A stretch of DNA of 29,368 bases from a virus (Duplodnaviria; Heunggongvirae; Uroviricota; Caudoviricetes), in the IMG/VR virus record IMGVR_UViG_2698536651_000005, positions 1 through 29,368 of that record, one strand, 5' to 3'. Shown here piece after piece: positions 3,731 through 21,593 of the stretch (position 1 is the stretch's first letter; each line of letters starts with the position of its first letter). A program made the position numbers and the translations under genes. The notes under the pieces were generated by a model. The model was not told the origin of the DNA and made no database searches. It was given only the letters and a program-made list of their open reading frames with translations.

Positions 3731-5180
3731 TACCACCTCCTTTATCGCAGGCAGGATCGGTATCAAACACCAGATCCAGCCTGCGGTTTTCATCAATTTC
3801 GGCCTTGCGCCGACGTTTAACATCATCCGGATTACGACCACTGGCGCGCACCCAGTCTGATTCTGTTGCCGCACCACCACGAATCTGGATTTTCCAGGCT
3901 TCAGCTTCCTTGACAGGATCAATCCACGGCATAACCGGACCAGAATATGTTGCGTTATATAATGTTTTTATATCCACATCCGACGGAATTTTCAGCAGCC
4001 CCGCGGCAACCACCATATTCAGCCATGCCCGGTACACCGGACGGGTTACAGCACCAATAAAACAGTCCTGCAGGATCAGATAGCCATCGGTGGACTCAAC
4101 CAGCTCCTGTCGCTGGGAACTGTAGGTACCGTTATAGTTACGTGCTGCACTGGAAAAACTCAGACGAGTGCCCGCCGCCATGGCCCGCAACTGACCATTA
4201 CGAAAAGTTTCCAGATTAGGGTTAGGCCGATCAGATTTGACCATGCCAATATCTTCCCCCTTACGCAGATCGTCATAAATAATGCCGGGAGTGATATGCA
4301 GTTCCCGATCATTATCTTTATTCGTCACAGGTTCCTCATAATCCTGCCCGTCTCCTTTACGAATATACAGCCCCAGTGCCGCAGCAACGCGCGCCGCTAC
4401 CAGCTCAGCATCTTCATATTCCTTAAGCGCACTGATCCGCATCAGCACACCGGACAACATGGATGTGCCACGCGTCTGATGAAGGCGGCGGGTAAACTTC
4501 AGATGCACCATATTTTCAGCGGCGATCTCTTTGGTTTCACTCTGTCGCCCGGTAACCGGATAATTTTTATAAACCAGGTATTTTTTCGGCCTGCCCCATT
4601 TATCCAGAAAAACCCCCTGATTCATTCCCGCAGACTCATCACTGAGCATGGGCACAAAATCCGGCTCCATTGCCTCGAGCCAGAAAGGCACACCGGCAGT
4701 CCGCGCCAGCCCGGCACCTGCGCCTCTGACCATCTGGGCAAACACTTCTCCATCACGTAACCAGGTACGCAACAGCAGACGTTCGAGCATGGGGCGCGTA
4801 TGCTGCCCGGTCACATCCGGACTGACAGACCATTCCGCCCACAAACGACGGATAATCATTGCCAGCTCTGTAGCCATATCACCATTTTTCAGTAATGGTT
4901 GTGGTTCAACAATGATCCCCTTTGCACCAATCACCCGCTCCTCAAGTTTGTCGAAAACACCGATTACCAGGTCATGATTGATGTCCAAAAAACGGGCCTG
5001 CTCCCGCAGGGAAACCGCCCCGTACTTACTGAGCTGGTCGGCAGAACGGTTTTCCCGTCGGGCTTTGTGTGTGCGTGTGGGTTTCACGGCCTCATAAGCG
5101 CGGATTAACGCTCTTGAGCGCAACCTCGCCGCTTTCCAGCCTGGAGAAAAAACACCAATCACATCATCCAGAATTGCCAT
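3675..5180 (-). CDS. portal protein (lambda gpB-like)
   Basis: 501-aa ORF between W-like gene and protease-capsid gene; ATG at 5180 overlaps upstream stop (ATGA); GGTGAGG RBS. Confidence 0.8.
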   Translation of the reverse strand: MAILDDVIGVFSPGWKAARLRSRALIRAYEAVKPTRTHKARRENRSADQLSKYGAVSLREQARFLDINHDLVIGVFDKLEERVIGAKGIIVEPQPLLKNGDMATELAMIIRRLWAEWSVSPDVTGQHTRPMLERLLLRTWLRDGEVFAQMVRGAGAGLARTAGVPFWLEAMEPDFVPMLSDESAGMNQGVFLDKWGRPKKYLVYKNYPVTGRQSETKEIAAENMVHLKFTRRLHQTRGTSMLSGVLMRISALKEYEDAELVAARVAAALGLYIRKGDGQDYEEPVTNKDNDRELHITPGIIYDDLRKGEDIGMVKSDRPNPNLETFRNGQLRAMAAGTRLSFSSAARNYNGTYSSQRQELVESTDGYLILQDCFIGAVTRPVYRAWLNMVVAAGLLKIPSDVDIKTLYNATYSGPVMPWIDPVKEAEAWKIQIRGGAATESDWVRASGRNPDDVKRRRKAEIDENRRLDLVFDTDPACDKGGGNAETERVVPQRTEGQPEE

Positions 5181-7496: not shown

Positions 7497-8024
7497 CTAG
7501 AGACTCTCTCCTTCCTCATCAGGAATTAATTCAGCAGCACAAGCCTCGTAGGATTTTTCCTGAAGAATGTATCGCAGGTCATCAATGGCCTGCTGTACAA
7601 CGCCGACGGCCTGAGGAGTCAGGGCGCAATCGCGTTCAAGAACATCCGGAATTGTCTCCAGAACCTGGACGACAGCCTTTCTCATGGACGAATAGACGAT
7701 GACTACTTCATCAACGGGGATGAGTTTTCGCTGCTCCTTTTCCAGCTTGATCCTTTCATTTTCAGACTGGTACCAGTCCTTTCTCTCTTTCGGCTCCATA
7801 CGGGATGGATCATGAACAGAGTCTGCTGCCTCATGCTTCACACTAAACAGGGCAGGCCCGACATGCTGCAGGGCGTAAACGGGGTTCCCCCTGACAGTCG
7901 CAGCCACAGGAGTGTTGGCCGCGAGGAGCCGTTTTTTTACTGTGTCCCGGTGAAGCCCAAAGGCCTCGGCGATTTTAAAAACACTCCAGTAATAAGCATC
8001 ACCGATCCCGCTCACATTTGACAT
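7497..8024 (-). CDS. terminase small subunit (Nu1-like, N-terminal HTH)
   Basis: ORF immediately upstream of large terminase; N-terminal HTH-like segment (VFKIAEAFGLHRDTVKKRL); ATG at 8024 has a GGAG RBS, alternative ATG at 8036 has none. Confidence 0.65.
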   Translation of the reverse strand: MSNVSGIGDAYYWSVFKIAEAFGLHRDTVKKRLLAANTPVAATVRGNPVYALQHVGPALFSVKHEAADSVHDPSRMEPKERKDWYQSENERIKLEKEQRKLIPVDEVVIVYSSMRKAVVQVLETIPDVLERDCALTPQAVGVVQQAIDDLRYILQEKSYEACAAELIPDEEGESL

Positions 8025-9679: not shown

Positions 9680-9772
9680 GCTATCTGATGCTATGCCCCT
9701 TACTTTCGCTCATCGTAGCCCCAGAAAAGAGCCTGCATGAGTTGAGGGTGTTCAGCACTTCAGTGTCAGTTT

Positions 9773-10318
9773 TTAAACCACCACGCGCTCTTTCATCCAG
9801 CCATAGACAAACGACTCATTGGCCTCGCGTTTCTCTACCAGCTCCAGATAACGCTCGCCCTGCGTACAGTTCAGGGCTTTCACCAGTACCAGTTCACCAT
9901 CCCTGCTGCGATTTTTCAGATATGCCCGTAATGCATTAAGAGTACGCGGCCCGATGCGTCCATCTGCATCCATATCCGGATAGAGTTTCCCGCGCAGGTT
10001 GAAAACGTTCAGCCAGCGCTGAAGCATTCTGGACGCCACAGTTGGCCCCATGTTCACGCCCGTATCGCACAACTCTGCGGCAATATCAGGAGACAGGTCC
10101 TCAACCTGGTCGAATCGTGGTCCGTACCAGTAGTCCGCCTCGAGTATTTCCAGCGCCTGCCCACGCGTCAGGTCACGCATATCGCCCTGATAACCGTGTG
10201 CACGGGCAACTTTTTCAGTGATGCCCCATTTAGTCGGACCACCTTTATCATCCGGGTGATTGACGTAACCGCCCTCTTTTCCCAGAATTTCGTCAAAAAT
10301 TTCATCTTTCGACTTCAT
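9773..10318 (-). CDS. endolysin, GH108-type N-acetylmuramidase with C-terminal peptidoglycan-binding domain
   Basis: motif EGGYVNHPDDKGGPTKWGIT typical of glycoside hydrolase family 108, C-terminal region like PG_binding_3; ATG at 10318 with GAAGG RBS. Confidence 0.8.
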   Translation of the reverse strand: MKSKDEIFDEILGKEGGYVNHPDDKGGPTKWGITEKVARAHGYQGDMRDLTRGQALEILEADYWYGPRFDQVEDLSPDIAAELCDTGVNMGPTVASRMLQRWLNVFNLRGKLYPDMDADGRIGPRTLNALRAYLKNRSRDGELVLVKALNCTQGERYLELVEKREANESFVYGWMKERVVV

Positions 10319-10319
10319 A

Positions 10320-10598
10320 TCAGCGCCTTCGTAATACAAGGATTTTTGATACGTTCCCGCGTGCTCGTATCACCAGCACGCAGAACACCAGGTTAATCAG
10401 GACGACCAGCCAGTTACCGGGTGGAAAGCGACCACACAGATAACAAAGCGGCGCAAAGGCATAAAGCAGCATCAGCAGCCAGGCCAGCCACGACATCAGC
10501 GGTTTATGTCTCGACTCACCACGACGATAAAAAAAGAGCGTCAGCACGATAACCGTGCTTAACACCACATTCAGTAATCCGGGAAGGTTACTTAACAT
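10320..10598 (-). CDS. membrane protein, 3 predicted TM segments (holin/antiholin-like lysis accessory)
   Basis: ATG at 10598 with GGAGG RBS; three hydrophobic stretches; located between putative holin and endolysin. Confidence 0.5.
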   Translation of the reverse strand: MLSNLPGLLNVVLSTVIVLTLFFYRRGESRHKPLMSWLAWLLMLLYAFAPLCYLCGRFPPGNWLVVLINLVFCVLVIRARGNVSKILVLRRR

Positions 10599-10977
10599 TA
10601 CCGCCTCCACCCCGCAGACGGGAGAACAGCCCGGATACCAGCGATGCGATATCCTGCTGGTGGATGAATGAGAGAATCTTCACCGACACCACCGATACCA
10701 GTACCGCGCAAAGCGCGTCGAGAGATGTGCTGTGGAGATTCAGTTTTTCGACCAGGTAAGACGCCATCACATCCGCCCCCAGTACGCCAACAATGAACGA
10801 CACCAGAAAATGCGCTGCCACACGCCAGACAGAAATCTTCTGTGGTATCGTGGCCACAAACAGCGCCCCTGCGAATGCACCAAACACAATCCCGAAATCC
10901 GTTCCGGTAAACAGCCCGAATACCGTCGCCCCGCCGAGCGCCGCAGCCGTGCCGGAACCGGATAAGGGTTCAGACAT
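10588..10977 (-). CDS. putative holin
   Basis: ATG at 10977 (MSEPLSGSG...) with AGGAGA RBS; Gly-rich hydrophobic segments; first gene of the lysis cassette. Confidence 0.5.
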   Translation of the reverse strand: MSEPLSGSGTAAALGGATVFGLFTGTDFGIVFGAFAGALFVATIPQKISVWRVAAHFLVSFIVGVLGADVMASYLVEKLNLHSTSLDALCAVLVSVVSVKILSFIHQQDIASLVSGLFSRLRGGGGNVK

Positions 10978-11143
10978 ACTTTTTCTCCTGTAAATAAAAA
11001 AAGGCCACTGTCGGCCCGTAAAAAACACCCCGTCAAAGGCACCCGCAGATGCCTTTTGTGTGGTGTTATCTGGTGTTTTCTGATGTGGTGTGTGCAGGAC
11101 ACAGATGTGAAAAAGGTCCGCCGGTACGAACCCTGTGTATGGA

Positions 11144-11170
11144 TAAAAAAATGCCCGTCATGAGACGGGC
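11144..11170 (-). terminator. rho-independent terminator on reverse strand (tR'-like position)
   Basis: GCCCGTC-ATGA-GACGGGC hairpin followed on the reverse strand by U7; about 170 nt upstream of holin start. Confidence 0.45.
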
Positions 11171-11223
11171 TAACGCATTCATCATGCAAGAGTTAAGCAG
11201 GATTACTTGTATCGAATTATCGG

Positions 11224-11301
11224 TATCAGAATGAGTCGTCAACCTGCAACGCAATTCTGACGAATCGTAGACCCCGGTTCAGGCGACGACTCATTCTGAT
11301 A
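11224..11301. repeat. 17-bp perfect inverted repeat separated by a 44-bp spacer
   Basis: TATCAGAATGAGTCGTC (11224-11240) and exact reverse complement GACGACTCATTCTGATA (11285-11301). Confidence 0.6.
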
Positions 11302-11445
11302 ACGCATACCATTAACAATGTAAAAAACACAGCACTGAAACTGTAACCGGCCAGGCATTACAGAATGAAGAAAATAAAGTGTCCGCAACCAGATTCTTCA
11401 CGAAAATTCGTCAGTGCTGATAAAGCTATGACTCATCAGTTTTAC

Positions 11446-11522
11446 TGGAGAGCGGGTGGCGGGAATCGAACCCGCATCATCAGCCTGGAAAGCTGAGGTA
11501 ATAGCCATTATACGATACCCGC
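11446..11522 (-). tRNA. tRNA-Gly (anticodon UCC)-like, atypical 3' end
   Basis: reverse strand reads GCGGGUAUCGUAUAAUGGCUAUUACCUCAGCUUUCCAGGCUGAUGAUGCGGGUUCGAUUCCCGCCACCCGCUCUCCA: near-identical to E. coli glyT as recalled through D and T arms, anticodon loop UU-UCC-AG; acceptor 3' strand differs and there is a 2-nt insertion before CCA. Confidence 0.7.
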
Positions 11523-11740: not shown

Positions 11741-12787
11741 TTAAAAATCTTTCGTTATTTCTCTGACCGTCTGATTAAAACGTTCCTCTTCCAGTTCCAC
11801 GCCAATCGCCCTGCGTCCCAGCAACAGTGCCGCTTTTATCGTGGAACCTGACCCCATAAAAAAATCTGCGACCAAATCGCCTGGACGGCTGCTGGCAGTA
11901 ATTATCTGACGCAACATATCCGCCGGTTTTTCACAGGGATGTTTGCCCGGATAATACTGCACGGGCTTGTGCGTCCAGACATCCGTATAAGGAACGACAG
12001 CCGATACGGAAAAATAACGCCGCAGTGATTTGTATTCCTCCAGCAGGCTGACATATTGCCGGTTCAGTTCGCTGTATGTGCTGACCAGCTGGTGATGTGG
12101 CTGCTCCAGTTCACCGCGCTGGTGTTTTTCTGCCGCCACACGTGCAAACAGCGCCTGCAGTTTACTGTAATCGGCCTCATTCGGTAACTGCCACTGACTG
12201 GTACCAAACCAGTGCGAAGCCATGTTTTTCTTTCCGGTGGCTTCTGCTATCTGTTTTGACGTTATCCCCAGTGATTCGCGCGCATCACGAAAGTAAGAAA
12301 TCAGCGGGGCCATGACATGCTGCTTAAGCTCGCGCCCCTTTGCTGCATAACCGTCACTTTTGGGCTGGTATGGCCCCTGATAATGTTCGGCAAACAGAAT
12401 GCGCTCTGTTGCCGGGAAATACGCCCGCAGGCTTTCCTTGTTGCACCCATTCCAGCGTCCGGACGGCTTCGCCCAGATAATGTGGTTCAGCACATTAAAA
12501 CGTTCACGCATCATGAGTTCGGTGTCAGATGCCAGGCGATGACCACAGAACAGGTAAAGACTTCCGGCGGGTTTTAATACCCGCCAGAACTGCGCAAGAC
12601 ACTGGTCCAGCCATTGCAGGTAATCAGCGTCGCCCTTCCACTGGTTATCCCAGCCCTCGGGCTTCACTTTAAAGTATGGCGGGTCTGTGACTATCAGATC
12701 GACAGAGTTTTCCGGTAAGGTCCGGATAAATTCCAGGCAATCAGCGTTGATTAACTCACAACTGGATATTTTTACAGTATTAGCCAT
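11741..12787 (-). CDS. DNA N6-adenine (or N4-cytosine) methyltransferase, beta-class, orphan
   Basis: motif IV DLIVTDPPY near N-terminus and SAM-binding motif FFMGSGST near C-terminus (order IV then I); no adjacent restriction endonuclease candidate. Confidence 0.85.
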   Translation of the reverse strand: MANTVKISSCELINADCLEFIRTLPENSVDLIVTDPPYFKVKPEGWDNQWKGDADYLQWLDQCLAQFWRVLKPAGSLYLFCGHRLASDTELMMRERFNVLNHIIWAKPSGRWNGCNKESLRAYFPATERILFAEHYQGPYQPKSDGYAAKGRELKQHVMAPLISYFRDARESLGITSKQIAEATGKKNMASHWFGTSQWQLPNEADYSKLQALFARVAAEKHQRGELEQPHHQLVSTYSELNRQYVSLLEEYKSLRRYFSVSAVVPYTDVWTHKPVQYYPGKHPCEKPADMLRQIITASSRPGDLVADFFMGSGSTIKAALLLGRRAIGVELEEERFNQTVREITKDF

Positions 12788-12937: not shown

Positions 12938-13135
12938 TCACTGAGGAAGGCGTCTGTAACAACCGAACTGATAATCTGCCAGACCCGCCATAACAAGCTG
13001 GGTCAGTATTAACTGGCAGCGTTCGCGTGAAAGGTAAGTATTCTGCGCAATTTCCCCGACGGTCGCCGGTTCGGTGACGCTTAATTCATTAAACACCACT
13101 CTGGCGGTTTCGGTCATATCCTGCTGTTTTAGCAT
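12938..13135 (-). CDS. hypothetical small protein, possible winged-helix
   Basis: ATG at 13135 with AAGGGA RBS; track ORF extends to 13228; no recognised motifs. Confidence 0.3.
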   Translation of the reverse strand: MLKQQDMTETARVVFNELSVTEPATVGEIAQNTYLSRERCQLILTQLVMAGLADYQFGCYRRLPQ

Positions 13136-13643
13136 GTCTTTTTCCCTTTTCCGGTTAACGTGACATACCAATAACTCTTGTCGAAAAAGCCAGCAAGCTG
13201 AAAGACCGGTATTCGTAACCACCAGCACGTTTAACGTCCTGTGCCGTTTTTCGGGTACAAAAAACAGCCCGACGGCGGTTTTAAGGAAGGAGTCGAAGCA
13301 ACCACTCTTAACATCATAATTGAATTTTTACGTACGTAAACCACAAATACGCCACTCAAATGTTAATGCTCTATAACAAAACCAAACATGCGAATAACAC
13401 ATATTACACCAAATACATCATTGTTATTTTTCAATGAAAAATGAGTAAATAATGTATTTCATTAATTAAATTCCGCATTACACAAAAATATCGACAAATT
13501 ACACCAACGCGCATAAATGAGATCTTGATCATATTATCAATCACTAAATTAAACTTGCCTCTTGAAATAACCACATTGATTAGATGAATATTTATCGCGC
13601 AGTGACATCATTTTTTAAAAATAGTTCAAAAAAAGGGTTCGTG

Positions 13644-14747
13644 ATGAAAAAATTAACGGTGGCAATTTCTGCTGTGGCTGCATCAGTACTGATGGCGATG
13701 TCTGCTCAGGCAGCAGAGATTTATAATAAAGACAGCAACAAGTTGGATCTGTACGGAAAAGTTAATGCTAAGCACTACTTCTCCTCTAACGATGCAAATG
13801 ATGGCGACACAACTTATGCTCGTCTGGGTTTCAAAGGCGAAACTCAGATCAACGATCAACTGACTGGTTTCGGTCAGTGGGAATATGAATTCAAAGGAAA
13901 CCGTACTGAAGAACAGGGAGCAGCCAAAGATAAAACCCGTCTTGCATTTGCAGGGCTTAAATTCGGTGACTACGGCTCCGTCGATTACGGTCGTAACTAC
14001 GGTGTAGCATACGATATCGGTGCATGGACTGACGTTCTGCCAGAATTCGGTGGAGATACCTGGACCCAAACAGATGTATTCATGACTGGTCGCACCACTG
14101 GTGTTGCAACTTATCGTAACAACGACTTCTTTGGTCTGGTTGATGGTCTGAATTTTGCTGCACAGTACCAGGGTAAGAATAATCATGATCGTAGTAGCTT
14201 AGATAACTACACCAAAGGCAATGGCGATGGTTTTGGTTTCTCTGCGACCTATGAATACGAAGGTTTCGGCATTGGTGCAACGTATGCGAAATCTGATCGT
14301 ACCGACACTCAAGTCAAATTGGGTAAACTTCTCCCAGGAGTATTTGCTTCCGGCGAAAATGCAGAAGTCTGGGCTGCAGGTCTGAAATACGACGCAAACA
14401 ACGTTTATCTGGCAACAACCTATTCAGAAACCCAGAATATGACTAAATTCGCAGATTACTTTGTGGCTAATAAAGCACAAAACTTCGAAGCTGTTGCACA
14501 ATATCAGTTCGATTTCGGTCTGCGTCCGTCTGTTGCTTATCTGCAATCAAAAGGTAAAGATCTTGGCATTTTTGGTGACCAAGATTTAGTCAAATATGTT
14601 GATGTTGGCGCAACTTATTATTTCAACAAAAATATGTCTACATTCGTTGATTACAAAATCAACCTGCTTGACAAAAATGACTTTACTAAAGCTCTTGGTG
14701 TAAACACTGACGATATCGTTGCTGTAGGTATGGTATACCAGTTCTAA
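13644..14747 (+). CDS. outer membrane porin, OmpC/NmpC/phage Lc family (prophage moron)
   Basis: signal peptide [23 protein letters not shown] then [16 protein letters not shown]..., C-terminal ...[11 protein letters not shown]; classic general-porin hallmarks; track ORF begins at 13584 but ATG 13644 gives a canonical signal peptide. Confidence 0.9.
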
Positions 14748-14767
14748 TCTGGTTAATAAAGGATATG

Positions 14768-14826
14768 CTGAGAAGGTTTTATCTTCTCAGCATATAAGTG
14801 GCTCCCTCAAGCCACTTCTTTAAGAA
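14768..14826 (+). terminator. tandem hairpins downstream of porin gene
   Basis: GCTGAGAAG-gttttat-CTTCTCAGC followed by AGTGGCT-ccctcaa-GCCACT then TCTTT. Confidence 0.5.
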
Positions 14827-14927
14827 GCATTAGAGCCCTGCTTCTTACTATCTAAACTTTCTGTTATATATTACCCTTTATCTTGGGGGTGTTTTTACGC
14901 CCCATTTTTTATTAAAAAATAATCGTA

Positions 14928-15311
14928 TTAATTAAGCTTAGTAACATCAATATCCATCTCTAAGCAAATGTCTAATGCCATTAACATACCTTCGATTATT
15001 CCCTCTGCTTTCTGTAACCTTTTCCCGATATACCCATCAGAGCAATTATGCTTCCGCGCCAGCATCATAAACGTCATCCCACCAACATAATAATCCACCA
15101 GCAAATCATGTAAGCCATTGTTGCTCTTTTTCAGACAGGCCATACATCCACAAATGATCATCGCGTCATCGTCACAGCATTGCGGACGAGATCTTACTTT
15201 TGAAGGAATTAATCCCTTAAAACCGGCGGCAACGGACGACCAGGTCACATCTTCATGATTATTAGCCGCCCACGCTCCCCAACGCTCAAGAACCATCTGA
15301 ATATCACGCAT
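14928..15311 (-). CDS. late-gene antitermination protein Q (phage 82 / DLP12 QuuD-like)
   Basis: 127 aa beginning [24 protein letters not shown], Cys-rich centre ([15 protein letters not shown]); recalled as the 82-type Q family; directly after replication genes. Confidence 0.7.
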
Positions 15312-19139: not shown

Positions 19140-19360
19140 ACGGCACCTCCCAGGCGTTTAAACATTTTTCCGGACTGAAACACCGCCAGTGGGTAGCTAA
19201 TGGTGTAGTTACGCCCCAGTAATTCACACACAACTTTCTGGTTTTCGGTGCTGACCAGACAAACCCGCAGAACGTGACCGTTGCTGGTGGCGAACCACTG
19301 CCCCACACGGGGGCAACGGTTGTATCGGTGATACAGGGAATTAACGACGCGGCGAATCAT
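19136..19360 (-). CDS. hypothetical protein (74 aa)
   Basis: ATG at 19360 with GGGAGGTG RBS; ATGA overlap with upstream gene. Confidence 0.4.
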   Translation of the reverse strand: MIRRVVNSLYHRYNRCPRVGQWFATSNGHVLRVCLVSTENQKVVCELLGRNYTISYPLAVFQSGKMFKRLGGAV

Positions 19361-20022
19361 GGGCGCACCTCCCATTGATTACGACGGAAAGCGGTGTGAC
19401 TGAGACTGGTTTCAGTTTCATGGAATGCTTCAATGCAGCTCTCGTAGTACCGCATTGTGCGCAGACTTAACCCAAGCTGAAGCATCATCAGGCCATCAAG
19501 GGTGATGTAATAACCACGCAGGGAGTCACCATAGATGTGATAAGTACCCGGTATGAAATTGCGGGTAAAAAACTCGCGTGAGCAGTTCAGATACTCGATT
19601 TTGTCGACGATGTTCTGGTGCATGCGCTTGAAATGGCAGGCTACATGCAAAGAGAAAATAACGGTCTTACCGTTAATAATCTCAATTTTGAGGAATGGGT
19701 GGGTAGTGGTGGTAGTCATGGTGACAGCCCCTATGTTGAATTCAAAGAACTCACCACCAAGGCTTTCCACGACCATATAGGTGGTGAGACGTACAGGGGT
19801 GGAAATACCGGTCAACATAGAACCCGGCCCAACCGAAGTTGGCCCTGCACGCCCCACCATAATTTGGGCGTAGCAATGCTCATGACACGAAAAAACCGCA
19901 TGAGCGCGGTTGTGCTCTATATTGAATTTCGGGTTTCCACGCCCGACACCCGCTTTATAAGGTGCTGGAACAGTGTAACGTCCCGAAATTGCAGAATCAA
20001 TATATTGTGCAAACATAACCAT
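19357..20022 (-). CDS. hypothetical protein (221 aa)
   Basis: 3' portion of a 509-aa reverse-strand ORF; ATG at 20022 chosen so it does not overlap the forward-strand TA genes; no SD, start uncertain; no recognised motifs. Confidence 0.35.
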   Translation of the reverse strand: MVMFAQYIDSAISGRYTVPAPYKAGVGRGNPKFNIEHNRAHAVFSCHEHCYAQIMVGRAGPTSVGPGSMLTGISTPVRLTTYMVVESLGGEFFEFNIGAVTMTTTTTHPFLKIEIINGKTVIFSLHVACHFKRMHQNIVDKIEYLNCSREFFTRNFIPGTYHIYGDSLRGYYITLDGLMMLQLGLSLRTMRYYESCIEAFHETETSLSHTAFRRNQWEVRP

Positions 20023-20040
20023 TTTGTTATGTTTTAACTC

Positions 20041-20370
20041 ATGAACTACACTATCGAATACTACAGTGAAGAGGTCAGGCTGGAGGTCGACCAGCTTCCA
20101 TTGAGTATGCGTGCCCGATACCAGCATCTTGTTGAACGCATGAAGGTATACGGCAGCAATCTCGGAGAACCTCATACCAGTGCTTTCGGTAACGGGCTTT
20201 TCGAGCTTCGGATTAAAGGTAGTGATGGCATCGCACGCATCTTTTACTGCACCCTGGCAGGAAAACGCATCATCATGCTGCATAGTTTCATCAAGAAGAC
20301 CCAGAAAACCCCACCAGCCGAACGCCAAAAAGCTGAAACCAGAATGAAGGAGGTAAAGCATGACTGGTAA
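20041..20370 (+). CDS. type II toxin, RelE/ParE superfamily (HigB-like, phage Gp49-like)
   Basis: 109 aa, ...GIARIFYCTLAGKRIIMLHSFIKKTQKTP... typical of Gp49/HigB-type toxins; 11-nt overlap with downstream HTH antitoxin gene. Confidence 0.7.
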   Translation: MNYTIEYYSEEVRLEVDQLPLSMRARYQHLVERMKVYGSNLGEPHTSAFGNGLFELRIKGSDGIARIFYCTLAGKRIIMLHSFIKKTQKTPPAERQKAETRMKEVKHDW

Positions 20371-20668
20371 ACGTAATCCGCCAACCATTACACATGATGA
20401 AATGGCTGATAAATGGATGAAGGATCCAGCTTTTAAAGCAGAATACGACGCCATCGCCGACGAATTTGCGCTGCTTGATGAAATGCTGGCAGCACGTAAA
20501 GAGGCTGGTTTAACCCAGGCTGACGTCGCTGAACGCATGGGAACCAAAGCTACTGTCATCAGCAGAATGGAAAGTAATCTGGCGTCAGGTGTCAGTGGAC
20601 CATCATTTTCCACACTGAAAAAATTTGCCCGCGCAACAGGAAAAAAACTCCAGATCCGCTTCGTGTAA
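20360..20668 (+). CDS. HTH (XRE-type) antitoxin, HigA-like
   Basis: AAGGAGGT RBS; HTH LTQADVAERMGTKATVISRMES; toxin-first gene order as in HigBA. Confidence 0.75.
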   Translation: MTGKRNPPTITHDEMADKWMKDPAFKAEYDAIADEFALLDEMLAARKEAGLTQADVAERMGTKATVISRMESNLASGVSGPSFSTLKKFARATGKKLQIRFV

Positions 20669-20689
20669 GTTTCCACCATTGCACCGTCA

Positions 20690-20863
20690 TTCTGGCGGTG
20701 CTTCGCACTCAACAAAATCACGACGAAATAACCACAACGGACTGAAACATTCATGCGGATAACCATCACGCAGGTAAATGACCCGCTGTGTTTCAGACTC
20801 CCAGCGTATAACGTGGACGCGACGCCCTCTGCCATCGCGGAACCAGCGATTGAGTACTTGCAT
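20690..20863 (-). CDS. possible small protein (57 aa)
   Basis: ORF below the track size cut-off, directly downstream of Rha gene; AGGT-type weak RBS. Confidence 0.2.
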
Positions 20864-20882
20864 GTGTTACCTGTGAGCATAA

Positions 20883-21593
20883 TCACACCTGCCAGCCCAG
20901 CGCCTGAAACAGGCCCATTTTCGGGTGATACCAGCGAGTACCTCGTGGTTCTGCTTCACTCATCATGCGATAAAAAGCAAACATGAAGGGTTCTACTGCA
21001 ACAATCGCGCGACGAGACAATAATCCGTCCGGCGTCATAAATTCATGGGTGTCGGTAGGGATCTGATATGCGTTCACCAGATTGCGGCATTTCGCATCTG
21101 ACATACCTGTTTTCGCCACCAGCTGACGGTATCCTGCATAACCATCGCGTATGGTGCCTCTTTTGATTTGTTCGACAGTTTCGGCAACGTGGCTAACTTT
21201 TTCTTCCATCTTGTCGAGGCGTTTTTGCTGACGAACTGCTTCAAGAGCCATCGCGGCAACCATTTCGATTTCGCTCATTGGCTTACGGATCTGTTCTTCC
21301 AGTTCACGCCAACGATCTACCAGGCGGGCAGTGAATTCCGGGCAAAGTTGTGCGACGACAATGATGCTGTCGCGTTTGCCTTGTTCGCCTTCGAAAATAT
21401 ATGCGTTTGTGAATTTGTTTTGGCTAAATGATTGTTCGTTCTCAACTTTTTGCATTGCAGGAAGTTGAATCACCCCGCGTTTTGCCAGACGCTCTATTGA
21501 TATTCTGACATTGCCGTGTTGACTTCCAACCAGCTCTGCGATTTCAACGCTGGTCATGGATACTTTGTCGTTAAAAATTGCGGTGTTCATCAT
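20883..21593 (-). CDS. phage regulatory protein, Rha family
   Basis: N-terminal region (SMTSVEIAELVGSQHGNVRISIERL) matches the Rha-type domain as recalled; GAGGAG RBS; ATGA coupling with upstream gene. Confidence 0.7.
   Translation of the reverse strand: MMNTAIFNDKVSMTSVEIAELVGSQHGNVRISIERLAKRGVIQLPAMQKVENEQSFSQNKFTNAYIFEGEQGKRDSIIVVAQLCPEFTARLVDRWRELEEQIRKPMSEIEMVAAMALEAVRQQKRLDKMEEKVSHVAETVEQIKRGTIRDGYAGYRQLVAKTGMSDAKCRNLVNAYQIPTDTHEFMTPDGLLSRRAIVAVEPFMFAFYRMMSEAEPRGTRWYHPKMGLFQALGWQV

Follow-up and report, generated by a model that had tools for sequence, protein, structure and literature searches.

A complete Lc/NmpC-type phage porin with an IpeX-like 3' UTR between the antiterminator gene Q and a predicted late promoter

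The porin gene and its surroundings

The sequence analysed here (hereinafter the window; 29,368 nt, virus record IMGVR_UViG_2698536651_000005, class Caudoviricetes) carries a porin gene on the plus strand, opposite to all the neighbours listed below, from Q through the GH108 lysin. The Q and porin genes are convergent, and the porin gene lies upstream of the late genes. The following features are recognized in this region.

9773-10339, minus strand: GH108 lysin
10320-10610 and 10588-11028, minus strand: holins
11450-11522, minus strand: tRNA-Gly
11741-12787, minus strand: DNA methylase
12938-13135, minus strand: 65-aa ORF
13259-13318, minus strand: predicted initial transcribed region of pR' and first terminator-like element, with the -10 hexamer TATGAT (13318-13313), the leader GTTAAGAGTGGTT..., a weak hairpin and a U6 run (13264-13259)
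13327-13340, minus strand: 14-bp dyad TTTACGTACGTAAA, overlapping the late-promoter -35 hexamer TTTACG (13340-13335) and reaching into the adjoining promoter spacer; candidate Q-binding element
13341-13517, no strand assigned: AT-rich spacer of low conservation that separates the divergent late and porin promoters, about 27% GC, with three ATTACAC(C/A)AA repeats
13518-13533, plus strand: CRP-like box TGAGATCTTGATCATA, a candidate site for activation of the porin promoter
13551-13643, plus strand: conserved region comprising the proximal promoter and 5' UTR of the porin gene, delineated by sequence comparison, with TTGAAA at 13562-13567 and the Shine-Dalgarno sequence AAGGG
13644-14747, plus strand: Lc/NmpC/OmpD-type porin gene, 367 aa, stop codon included; signal peptide at 13644-13712
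14748-14910, plus strand: structured 3' UTR of the porin gene, IpeX homologue, 168 nt to the U6 tail
14763-14795, plus strand: hairpin H1
14796-14817, plus strand: hairpin H2
14821-14847, plus strand: hairpin H3
14848-14885, plus strand: conserved unpaired segment, 38 nt
14855-14869, plus strand: AACTTTCTGTTATAT, 15 nt complementary to positions -21 to -7 of the K-12 ompC mRNA, Shine-Dalgarno sequence included, with two G-U pairs
14886-14910, plus strand: intrinsic terminator, consisting of hairpin H4 (14886-14903) and U6 (14905-14910)
14928-15311, minus strand: antiterminator Q, Q21/Q933W family, QuuD-type allele (Pfam PF06530, E=5.5e-52)

The longest ORF at the porin locus spans 13584-14747 on the plus strand; the actual start is the ATG at 13644, with AAGGG just 5' of it. 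A Pfam search identifies the Porin_1 domain (PF00267) from end to end (1-337 of 337 positions, E=8e-152), and the protein scores 529.9 bits against the NCBIfam OmpC subfamily model NF007841 (cutoff 484). Residues 24-367 align with the entire solved chains of Omp36, OmpK36, OmpC, PhoE and OmpF in the PDB, and this full-length alignment reveals neither frameshift nor truncation, in agreement with the sequence-only reading, which had described a complete porin of the OmpC/NmpC/Lc family. The signal peptide, also called canonical there, comprises 23 aa, exactly as long as the one annotated for Lc, with cleavage predicted before AEIYNK; besides this Sec signal peptide, the protein contains the constriction-loop motif PEFGG and the C-terminal aromatic sequence YQF (ending GMVYQF). 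The amino acid identity is 93.2% with Lc of phage PA-2, 86-94% with 21 other phage alleles and 61% with OmpC of E. coli K-12. Judging from these alignments, the protein is a complete general bacterial porin of the Lc/NmpC type, with a predicted role as a trimeric channel. The novelty of the porin itself is small: the EC11 gene is identical, so that the exact protein is already present in RefSeq, under the PGAP name 'porin OmpC'. Knowledge of phage porins of the Lc/NmpC type, of their location beside Q and of how they affect OmpC dates back to the 1980s.

The same layout of Q and porin is found in the DLP12 prophage of E. coli K-12, PA-2, phage 434 and many other phages, and in all 81 of the loci with a QuuD-type Q the interval from Q to the late-promoter block is occupied by a porin gene. 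The resemblance to DLP12 nmpC and PA-2 lc pointed out from the sequence alone is borne out by this synteny and by the identity to Lc. By sequence and position, the gene is an intact Lc/NmpC-family moron adjoining Q, as in DLP12 and PA-2.

The region upstream of the porin gene (13229-13643, 415 bp) is indeed AT-rich, as had been noted, with 32.5% GC compared to 48% in the window, and only 28% in 13345-13643. Two parts of it differ in conservation: the spacer 13341-13517 is indel-rich and cannot be aligned among relatives, whereas 13551-13643 is nearly identical to the regions preceding nmpC of DLP12 and lc of PA-2, with a megablast match to both phages from 13551 onward. The CRP-like box precedes the porin ATG by about 110-125 bp and has a match quality of 4/5 + 4/5; it aligns with a 'cAMP receptor protein' site annotated upstream of lc (J02580) and is kept in four divergent upstream regions. 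The pattern itself has four matches in the window against 1.08 expected. On this comparative evidence, the CRP-like box is a better candidate for a site of porin regulation than the palindrome discussed below. When OmpR and H-NS sites were considered, the upstream region showed only an ACA pattern with a period of 9 nt and ATTACACCAA repeats. An upstream region of the micF/ompC type is absent from the porin gene, and an Rfam search of the porin upstream region and 3' UTR at both thresholds yields a chance match to GcvB (E=0.26) alone.

The 3' UTR of the porin gene is an IpeX homologue

Tandem terminator hairpins had been proposed to follow the porin gene. Both hairpins (H1 and H2) are real, but each of them lacks a U-run after it on the plus strand; they are parts of a structured IpeX-like 3' UTR, and the terminator is H4 with U6 (14886-14910), beyond the interval described in that proposal. 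The minimum free energy of the 3' UTR fold is -60.1 kcal/mol (z=-8.1). In the alignment of this region, 98.1% of the cells are paired, compared to 36-60% in slid controls; compensatory double changes are observed in 9 pairs (0 of 500 shuffles), and 17 G-U cells against a single A-C cell favour the porin-sense strand. The mean column identity to the corresponding regions of PA-2 and of DLP12, where the stretch is located between nmpC and quuD, is 81%, and the unpaired segment is kept across three divergent sequence classes. There is no Rfam model for IpeX. The published IpeX is an RNA of 167 nt located right after the stop codon of the phage porin (PMC12197685), and the region of DLP12 and PA-2 homologous to the 3' UTR is this very RNA (PMC12197685, PMC5069750). 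Homology and structure together show that the 3' UTR is an IpeX homologue.

The pairing test with ompC was confined to the unpaired segment 14848-14885. The predicted duplex of this segment with the ompC initiation region has an energy of -22.0 kcal/mol, which is matched by 2 of 1000 shuffles; the initiation region of the phage porin itself is not a significant target of the segment (p=0.28), and the complementarity of the 3' UTR of this allele to ompF is not significant either (p=0.08). The length of the complementary run, with G-U pairs allowed, is weakly above that in shuffles, and duplex prediction with the whole length of IpeX against ompC is uninformative. The 3' UTR is thus a small-RNA-like tail that would probably silence OmpC of the host.

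It appears unlikely that the hairpins following the porin gene are terminators alone, which would keep the converging transcripts of the porin gene and Q apart and lack any trans-acting RNA function. A site between convergent genes suits a bidirectional terminator, and H4 has U6 on the plus strand and H1 a partial U-run on the minus strand; however, four hairpins and a conserved unpaired segment of 38 nt exceed the needs of termination, the 17 to 1 ratio of G-U to A-C cells points to selection on the porin-sense RNA, the segment that is conserved in three classes is complementary to the ompC ribosome-binding site, and the homologous region of DLP12 and PA-2 is a published RNA.

The porin gene has a predicted rightward transcription unit of its own, made up of the proximal promoter region, the CRP-like box, the coding sequence, the 3' UTR and the intrinsic terminator. 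A lysogen transcribing the phage porin would co-produce the IpeX-like tail, and the unpaired segment of this tail could base-pair with the ribosome-binding site of ompC; OmpC would give way to the phage porin in the outer membrane, and this replacement would exclude phages that adsorb to OmpC. IpeX of DLP12 and PA-2, which derives from the porin transcript, is reported to lower both OmpC and OmpF, and the superinfection exclusion by the phage porin suggested by the sequence-only reading agrees with the published work on PA-2 and ipeX. The pairing of the 3' UTR with ompC, if true, offers a simple mechanism for the loss of OmpC in lysogens, and down-regulation of OmpC bears both on the exclusion of phages through their receptor and on porin-dependent uptake of antibiotics.

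The late promoter and the 14-bp palindrome

A promoter scan detects TTTACG-16-TATGAT on the minus strand at 13340-13313, beyond the 5' end of the porin gene. The block that includes this site, with its leader and -10 hexamer aligned across eight phages, is conserved in PA-2, in DLP12, where it precedes essD by about 190 bp, and in three phages without a porin (PhiR40_1, phiP27 and Stx2a_1447), and the TAnnnT signature of the -10 hexamer is retained in all variants of the block. In the 933W record, the homologous stretch, located directly after Q, is annotated as pR', qut and terminator. The segment 13340-13259 is thus shown by homology to correspond to the leftward late promoter pR', predicted to be of the sigma-70 type and to direct transcription of the late genes downstream of Q.

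Since pR' lies beyond the 5' end of the porin gene and fires away from it, the porin would be outside the late transcript. The porin had been described as oriented against late transcription; its strand is indeed opposite to that of its neighbours, but the late promoter points away from it. The porin gene would converge with the early transcript encoding Q rather than lie antisense within the late transcript. A late promoter directly downstream of Q (14748-14927, minus strand), with the late RNA running antisense through the porin gene, would match lambda and 933W, in both of which pR' immediately follows Q, and this interval holds a highly conserved minus-strand segment, AAGGGTAATATATAACAGAA. 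This arrangement is nevertheless extremely unlikely: the scan of the minus strand detects no promoter-like site in the interval from Q to the porin gene, and a late promoter between Q and the 3' end of the porin gene was rejected on these grounds; the AAGGGTAATATATAACAGAA segment corresponds to the seed region left unpaired in the porin-sense RNA, the homologue of the 933W pR'/qut/terminator stretch is at 13259-13340 instead, and the leader core occurs only once in the window.

The invariant leader sequence GTTAAGAGTGG resembles AACGATGGG of lambda pR', and no -10-like pause element in the leader can be placed with confidence. In phage 82, pR' contains an extended -10-like element at +6 to +14, GCC at +15-17, an AT-rich stretch and a pause at +25 (PMC5001585). 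The block was compared with this layout in several registers; GCC and U25 can be accommodated, whereas a place for the -10-like element or the AT-rich stretch is lacking, and this model was abandoned. The first hairpin followed by U6 has a stem of 3 bp in the window and of 8-9 bp in locus L011, DLP12 and phiP27, and a stronger terminator-like site follows the 65-aa ORF (12951-12934). The idea that this prophage has a defective tR' was dropped: the hairpin is also weak in PA-2 and other relatives, and the mapped tR' of Stx phages is further downstream, 258 nt from pR' (PMC7547250).

A perfect 14-bp palindrome had been noted at 13327-13340 and is found exactly there. The window contains three perfect palindromes of at least 14 bp compared to 1.9 expected, and 7% of simulated AT-rich regions of 415 bp hold one, so that the palindrome is not beyond chance on its own and its weight rests on conservation. 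The dyad is invariant in 81 of 81 loci with a QuuD-type Q, its flanks being variable; the gap between the dyad and the -10 hexamer is constant (8 nt), whereas the distance to the porin ATG ranges from 245 to 370 nt among relatives. Across about 300 loci, the variants of the helix-turn-helix of Q form at least seven classes, each paired one-to-one with a dyad of its own at a fixed spacing; all class-specific dyads are centred 15 nt upstream of the -10 hexamer, and the differences among them are limited to the positions that change with the recognition helices of Q. Within a single Q class, both the flanks and the distance from Q to the block (67 to 3750 nt) vary.

The protein encoded by Q in the window consists of 127 aa with a compact helix-turn-helix and shows 87% identity to QuuD of K-12 and 75% to Q of 933W; its match in the PDB is Q21 (E=6.7e-8). 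Assignment to the Q82 family, with binding as a dimer (drawn from PMC4914094 and 10.1101/651190), was overturned by this PDB match and the identity to 933W Q; the preprint 10.1101/651190 assigns PF06530 to two families. A Q-binding element has been described between the -35 and -10 hexamers (PMC6606751), but in Q21, the one relative with structural data, the bound sites are direct repeats at about -24 to -11 (PMC6606751), not an inverted repeat on the -35 hexamer. Because the block is homologous to pR' of 933W and the dyads pair with the Q variants, the palindrome is most likely the Q-binding element of the late promoter rather than a porin operator, with Q of the window as its presumed reader. 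Q would bind the dyad and then modify RNA polymerase to pass terminators into the 65-aa ORF, the methylase, the tRNA and the lysis genes.

Two other interpretations of the palindrome have to be considered. The sequence-only reading took it for a candidate regulator site of the porin, which would make it an operator for a host factor or a phage repressor, with the AT-rich region as a long control region of the porin. The palindrome precedes the porin ATG by 303 nt, within AT-rich intergenic DNA, and dyad, Q and porin are found together in every QuuD-type locus examined, so that co-occurrence alone cannot tell whether Q or the porin is the partner of the dyad. Against this interpretation, the palindrome belongs to the minus-strand pR'-like block, with a fixed distance to the -10 hexamer on that strand and a distance to the porin start that varies across unalignable DNA; moreover, equivalent dyads occupy the same position in phages without a porin, and the homologous DNA of 933W is annotated as pR'. 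An operator role is therefore very improbable. An origin by chance in AT-rich DNA, or a plain -35 region with no separate protein-binding role, agrees with the counts and simulations above and with the fact that a part of the palindrome doubles as the -35 hexamer, but sits poorly with a dyad that is invariant in 81 loci despite varying flanks and with six further Q classes, each of which has a different dyad at an identical spacing, the changes tracking the recognition helices; we consider it improbable. As for the preferred assignment to Q, the Q-dyad correlation could partly stem from co-inheritance of adjoining DNA.

The Q gene, the porin cargo and the late promoter would constitute a three-part module present in many E. 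coli lambdoid prophages, with the porin in a cargo slot between Q and pR' that late transcription would not cross. We regard the reading as a whole, that is, an intact porin with an IpeX-like 3' UTR, the dyad within pR' and the porin as cargo between Q and pR', as quite probable. The corrected map gives the position of the late promoter in this prophage family and puts the porin, along with other cargo, between Q and this promoter.

A broader proposal, to which we give about an even chance, holds that Q proteins of the Q21/Q933W family in E. coli use an allele-specific inverted-repeat element overlapping the -35 hexamer of pR'. Under the recognition code that is part of this proposal, the residues at the helix start (SDGY, SDTC, SDCW and others) would match the dyad centres (GTAC, GATC, AATC and others, respectively). 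The slot between Q and pR', 0 to 3.7 kb in length and insulated from late transcription, would gather exclusion and defence genes, the examples being the porin with its anti-ompC 3' UTR in the window and PD-Lambda-1 in phiP27. The same joint proposal includes direct pairing of IpeX-type 3' UTRs with the ompC and ompF ribosome-binding sites, contrary to the original IpeX paper, which reportedly found no obvious complementarity to ompC. The pairing of Q variants with promoter dyads is testable, and the same family controls the expression of Shiga toxin.

Comparison with known systems

Among the known porins, Lc of PA-2 (J02580) is close to the window porin in sequence (93% identity), in the 23-aa signal peptide and in position and orientation beside Q; the proximal promoter and 5' UTR are the same, and the CRP site and the 3' UTR are homologous. 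The substitutions that distinguish the window porin from Lc cluster at residues 48-59, 86-95, 180-192, 221-237 and 268-274; the coincidence of the clusters with indels in the alignment with Omp36 around 180-190 and 224-232 suggests that they map to surface loops. In the window, the distal upstream region 13341-13517 is unrelated to that of PA-2, hairpin H1 and the loop of H3 in the 3' UTR have been rewritten with compensatory changes, and the late operon opens with the 65-aa ORF, the methylase and the tRNA, whereas that of PA-2 opens with lysis genes. The chromosomal porins OmpC of E. coli and OmpD of Salmonella are general-diffusion porins of the same Pfam family, and OmpD and NmpC are treated as counterparts (PMC3333887); compared with OmpC of K-12, the window porin is only 61% identical, is prophage-borne and lacks the micF/ompC-type upstream region.

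The DLP12 locus (nmpC, IpeX, quuD) shares the Q-porin-pR' module with the window, including an identical 14-bp dyad (positions 4696-4709 of locus L003), a Q protein with 87% identity and a 3' UTR homologous over about 165 nt, which fits the published length of IpeX. It differs in that nmpC of K-12 is interrupted by IS5, whereas the gene in the window is intact, and in that the first hairpin with its U-run has a strong 8-bp stem, as opposed to 3 bp in the window.

The pR'/qut/tR' region of the Stx2 phage 933W, the source of the StxS sRNA, resembles the window block in its perfect 14-bp dyad, A-tract, TAnnnT -10 hexamer, conserved leader and hairpin followed by a U-run, and its Q protein is 75% identical to that of the window. 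This pR' is reported to be constitutive and to yield a short RNA in lysogens that binds Hfq (PMC7547250). Unlike the arrangement in the window, the 933W block overlaps the end of Q and leaves no cargo between them; its dyad centre is GATC with the Q helix SDTC, as opposed to GTAC with SDGY, and the tR' mapped in Stx phages contrasts with the terminator-like site of the window at 12951-12934, after the 65-aa ORF.

The resemblance does not extend to phage 82: the window Q matches Q21 and Q933W instead of Q82, and the leader lacks a good -10-like hexamer in the expected position and an AT-rich stretch. Q21 (PDB 6P18, 6JNX) belongs to the same family, PF06530, and its element, bound by two Q21 protomers, is situated within the late promoter, between the -35 and -10 hexamers (PMC6606751). 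However, Q21 has 162 aa, with a long loop inside the helix-turn-helix, and recognizes direct repeats (TGAGCA x2), whereas the shorter Q of the window, in which the helix-turn-helix is compact, has as its candidate site an inverted repeat overlapping the -35 hexamer.

Porin gene and neighbors

The locus was taken in the sequence-only reading to be a complete Lc/NmpC-type porin moron (Lc is the porin of phage PA-2, and nmpC the porin gene of DLP12). This identification is correct, and the porin locus as such is ordinary. All neighbors of the porin are on the minus strand:

Features around the porin
9773-11028, minus: two holins and GH108 endolysin
11450-11522, minus: tRNA-Gly
11741-12787, minus: N6/N4 DNA methylase
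12938-13135, minus: 65-aa ORF
13340-13313, minus: promoter-like pair TTTACG-16 nt-TATGAT (promoter scan)
13518-13533, plus: CRP-like box TGAGATCTTGATCATA, aligned with the annotated cAMP-receptor-protein site upstream of lc
13584-14747, plus: longest porin ORF
14928-15311, minus: Q antiterminator

Within the longest ORF, translation most sensibly begins at the ATG at 13644, with AAGGG just 5'. The 367-aa product matches the whole Pfam Porin_1 profile (E=8e-152), passes the NCBIfam OmpC-subfamily cutoff and starts with a typical signal peptide of 23 residues (ending AQA/AE), the length annotated for Lc. Its residues 24-367 align with complete solved chains of OmpC, OmpK36, PhoE and OmpF, and no frameshift or truncation is detectable in this full-length alignment, so that the gene is intact as read initially. 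The amino acid identity is 93% to Lc, 86-94% to 21 other phage alleles collected and 61% to K-12 OmpC; the E. coli EC11 product annotated 'porin OmpC' is identical. In DNA searches, thousands of E. coli genomes and 58 phage records contain the porin gene as well as its junction with Q. The latter, at ~82-87% nucleotide identity, include PA-2 (lc), phage 434 and numerous recently isolated lambdoid phages. Morons of this kind have long been known; the window porin adds a new allele. Differences from the phage relatives concentrate at residues 48-59, 86-95, 180-192, 221-237 and 268-274; insertions and deletions in the solved Omp36 chain relative to the window porin (~180-190 and 224-232) coincide with the clusters there, which suggests that these are external loops.

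Late promoter and the Q-associated dyad

The palindrome TTTACGTACGTAAA maps exactly to 13327-13340, as reported. Statistically, it is unremarkable, as chance alone would give about 2 perfect 14-bp palindromes in the window, which has 3. Perfect 14-bp palindromes also occur within the porin signal-peptide coding region (CATCAGTACTGATG, 13681-13694) and in the terminase region (GACTGGTACCAGTC, 7765-7778), both probably by chance.

Three E. coli prophages share the porin upstream region at ~84% identity. In the alignment with them, a sharply conserved block stops exactly at the palindrome and gives way to unalignable AT-rich DNA. The block reads leftward: on the minus strand, it has the promoter-like pair, then, 3' of the -10, the leader GTTAAGAGTGGTT..., followed by a hairpin and a U-run. 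The window has a single copy of the leader core. The initial transcribed sequence resembles that of lambda pR' (AAGAGTGGTTACTTCGC in the window vs AACGATGGGTTAATTCGC in lambda). In DLP12, the homologous block precedes essD by ~190 bp, and in PA-2, it precedes the lysis genes. In the deposited 933W record, the homologous sequence abuts Q directly and is annotated 'pR' putative late promoter', 'qut' and 'possible rho-independent terminator'. A promoter scan of the minus strand from Q to the porin 3' end detects no promoter-like site. We conclude from these comparisons that the predicted late promoter is 13313-13340 on the minus strand, with the porin between it and the Q gene, so that late transcription would not cross the porin; the proposal that the porin lies within and against the late transcript is not borne out. 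By the same alignments, the palindrome, previously regarded as a candidate regulator site, is part of this opposite-strand promoter. The block is also present in porin-less phages.

In those phages, the block follows other cargo behind Q, and the cargo differs from phage to phage. The interval holds a 447-nt uncharacterized opposite-strand ORF in PhiR40_1 (L007, 1990-2436), two such ORFs in Stx2a_1447 (L009, 884-2447), and in phiP27 (L008, 1250-2479) a PD-Lambda-1-like protein with a T5orf172/MUG113 domain (PD-Lambda-1 defense model, E=2e-89); in some contigs, it is only 67-79 nt.

The first hairpin with a U-run after pR' (13259-13280, minus) is reduced to a 3-bp stem in the window and EC11, and is also weak in PA-2, ETEC1749, MB06231 and PhiR40_1; two IMG/VR contigs with Q and porin identical to those of the window have a 9-bp stem there (AAACCCGCCGTTTGGCGGGTTTTTT, ~8030-8055 of L011, one related sequence). 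The first gene after pR' is the 65-aa ORF, which has no match in Pfam or NCBIfam; its phiP27 homolog carries the annotation of a TrmB-family regulator. Directly 3' of this ORF, ahead of the methylase, lies a strong terminator-like hairpin with a T-run (12951-12934, minus). The 65-aa protein could be produced in the lysogen if pR' is constitutive, as it is in Stx phages.

By sequence, the window Q belongs to the Q21/Q933W family because it is a member of PF06530, is 75% identical to 933W Q and matches the solved Q21 in PDB (E=6.7e-8). The main text of a preprint (10.1101/651190) lists PF06530 for both the Q21/Q933W and Q82 families; the PDB match indicates that it covers the former. A Q82-family identity is rejected in view of the 933W identity and the Q21 match. 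Across ~300 loci gathered in two independent ways, by Q similarity and by leader core, each Q helix-turn-helix variant is accompanied by one dyad:

Q variants and their dyads
QuuD-type (window): TTTACGTACGTAAA; 81 loci, porin in all
..CSDTCIGKRL (933W): TTTACGATCGTAAA
..RSDCWVGRLL: TTTACAATCGTAAA
..CSDGTIRKEL: GCGTACGC
..ISHTQILKRL: GGAATTCC
..KDEKLIRIEI: GCGGTCCGC
..ISLNQVVIRL: TGTTATAACA

In all Q classes, the dyad center precedes the -10 by 15 nt, and the -10 retains TAnnnT. The dyad is constant within a class, where the flanks differ and the distance from Q to the promoter ranges from 67 to 3750 nt. Given this spacing, the pairing with Q classes and the published position of the Q-binding element between -35 and -10, where it carries two Q21 protomers (PMC6606751), the dyad is the best candidate for this element, and probably serves as such. 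Part of the Q-dyad correlation could come from linkage, Q21 uses direct repeats as opposed to a dyad, and a pause-inducing -10-like element was sought in the leader but none was placed with confidence; hence we infer, rather than assert, that the dyad is the Q-binding element.

Porin mRNA ends

The hairpins 3' of the porin, initially described as tandem terminators, are by sequence and fold an IpeX-like tail of the porin mRNA (IpeX is the RNA derived from the porin transcript of DLP12/PA-2). From the stop codon to 14912, the RNA (168 nt) folds into four hairpins (-60.1 kcal/mol, z=-8.1), with a U6 tail on the last one only (14886-14903). This 3' UTR aligns with the DLP12 nmpC-quuD intergenic region and the PA-2 sequence after lc, and fits IpeX in position, length and sequence; Rfam has no model for it. 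In a comparison of 21 distinct sequences from three divergent classes, paired cells make up 98% (36-60% in slid controls), nine pairs are changed on both sides (vs 0/500 shuffles), and the third hairpin is rewritten between classes (GAAGCA/TGCTTC vs AAAGAC/GTCTTT). There are 17 G-U cells against one A-C cell, which favors porin-sense RNA as the strand carrying the structure.

The 38-nt conserved unpaired stretch between hairpins 3 and 4 (14848-14885, plus) includes 15 nt complementary to K-12 ompC mRNA from -21 to -7 (pairing with ATATAACAGAGGGTT). The predicted duplex with the ompC initiation region has -22.0 kcal/mol (2/1000 shuffles as good), that with K-12 ompF -16.9 kcal/mol (p=0.08), and that with the phage porin's own initiation region -12.6 kcal/mol (p=0.28, not above chance). 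For the ETEC1749 and MB06231 alleles, there is also a 16-nt pairing of the unpaired part with the ompF stretch AGGGTAATAAATAATG. In sequence, the unpaired part resembles the reverse complement of ribosome-binding regions of porin mRNAs (the K-12 ompC and ompF leaders, L254 and L256), and the tail may have arisen from an inverted porin leader. This complementarity to the ompC ribosome-binding site, the Q-dyad pairing and the cargo slot between Q and pR' are of modest interest and directly testable.

The 415 bp upstream of the porin are indeed AT-rich (32.5% GC vs 48% in the window). The segment from 13551 to the porin ATG is nearly identical in DLP12 and PA-2, and the CRP-like box is kept in four otherwise divergent upstream regions. 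Porin transcription would start near 13575 with a leader of the length of Salmonella ompD (69 nt, PMC3333887), or near 13598 from the TTGAAA/GAATAT pair. The AT-rich stretch between the divergent promoters is variable, with short repeats. In the spacer upstream of the CRP-like box (13399-13508), ATTACAC(C/A)AA occurs three times (13403, 13477 and 13498, plus) along with the 14-nt repeat ACAnATTACACCAA, and these repeats are partly conserved in ETEC1749. In E. coli MB06231 (L006, 4290-4400), the equivalent spacer is expanded by tandem ~17-nt units (ATTTCATGTATTTTAGA-like), so it is free to vary in length.

Comparison with known prophages

Rfam identifies C4 antisense RNA (82.4 bits) beside isrK Hfq-binding RNA (59.3 bits) at 19777-19965 (minus). 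The adjoining ORF (19357-20886) has Ash and Rha domains, and the region resembles an antirepressor control region of the P1/P7 type within this lambdoid prophage. EC11, which at 99.8% over the porin region is the closest genome, carries additional hypothetical, TerB and DUF3927 genes between the tRNA and the holins. These are missing from the window (9700-11500), which is therefore a different prophage; the EC11 capsid, portal and terminase genes are frameshifted. The arrangement in the window equals that of K-12 DLP12, where quuD is followed by nmpC on the other strand, interrupted by IS5, and then by the lysis genes.
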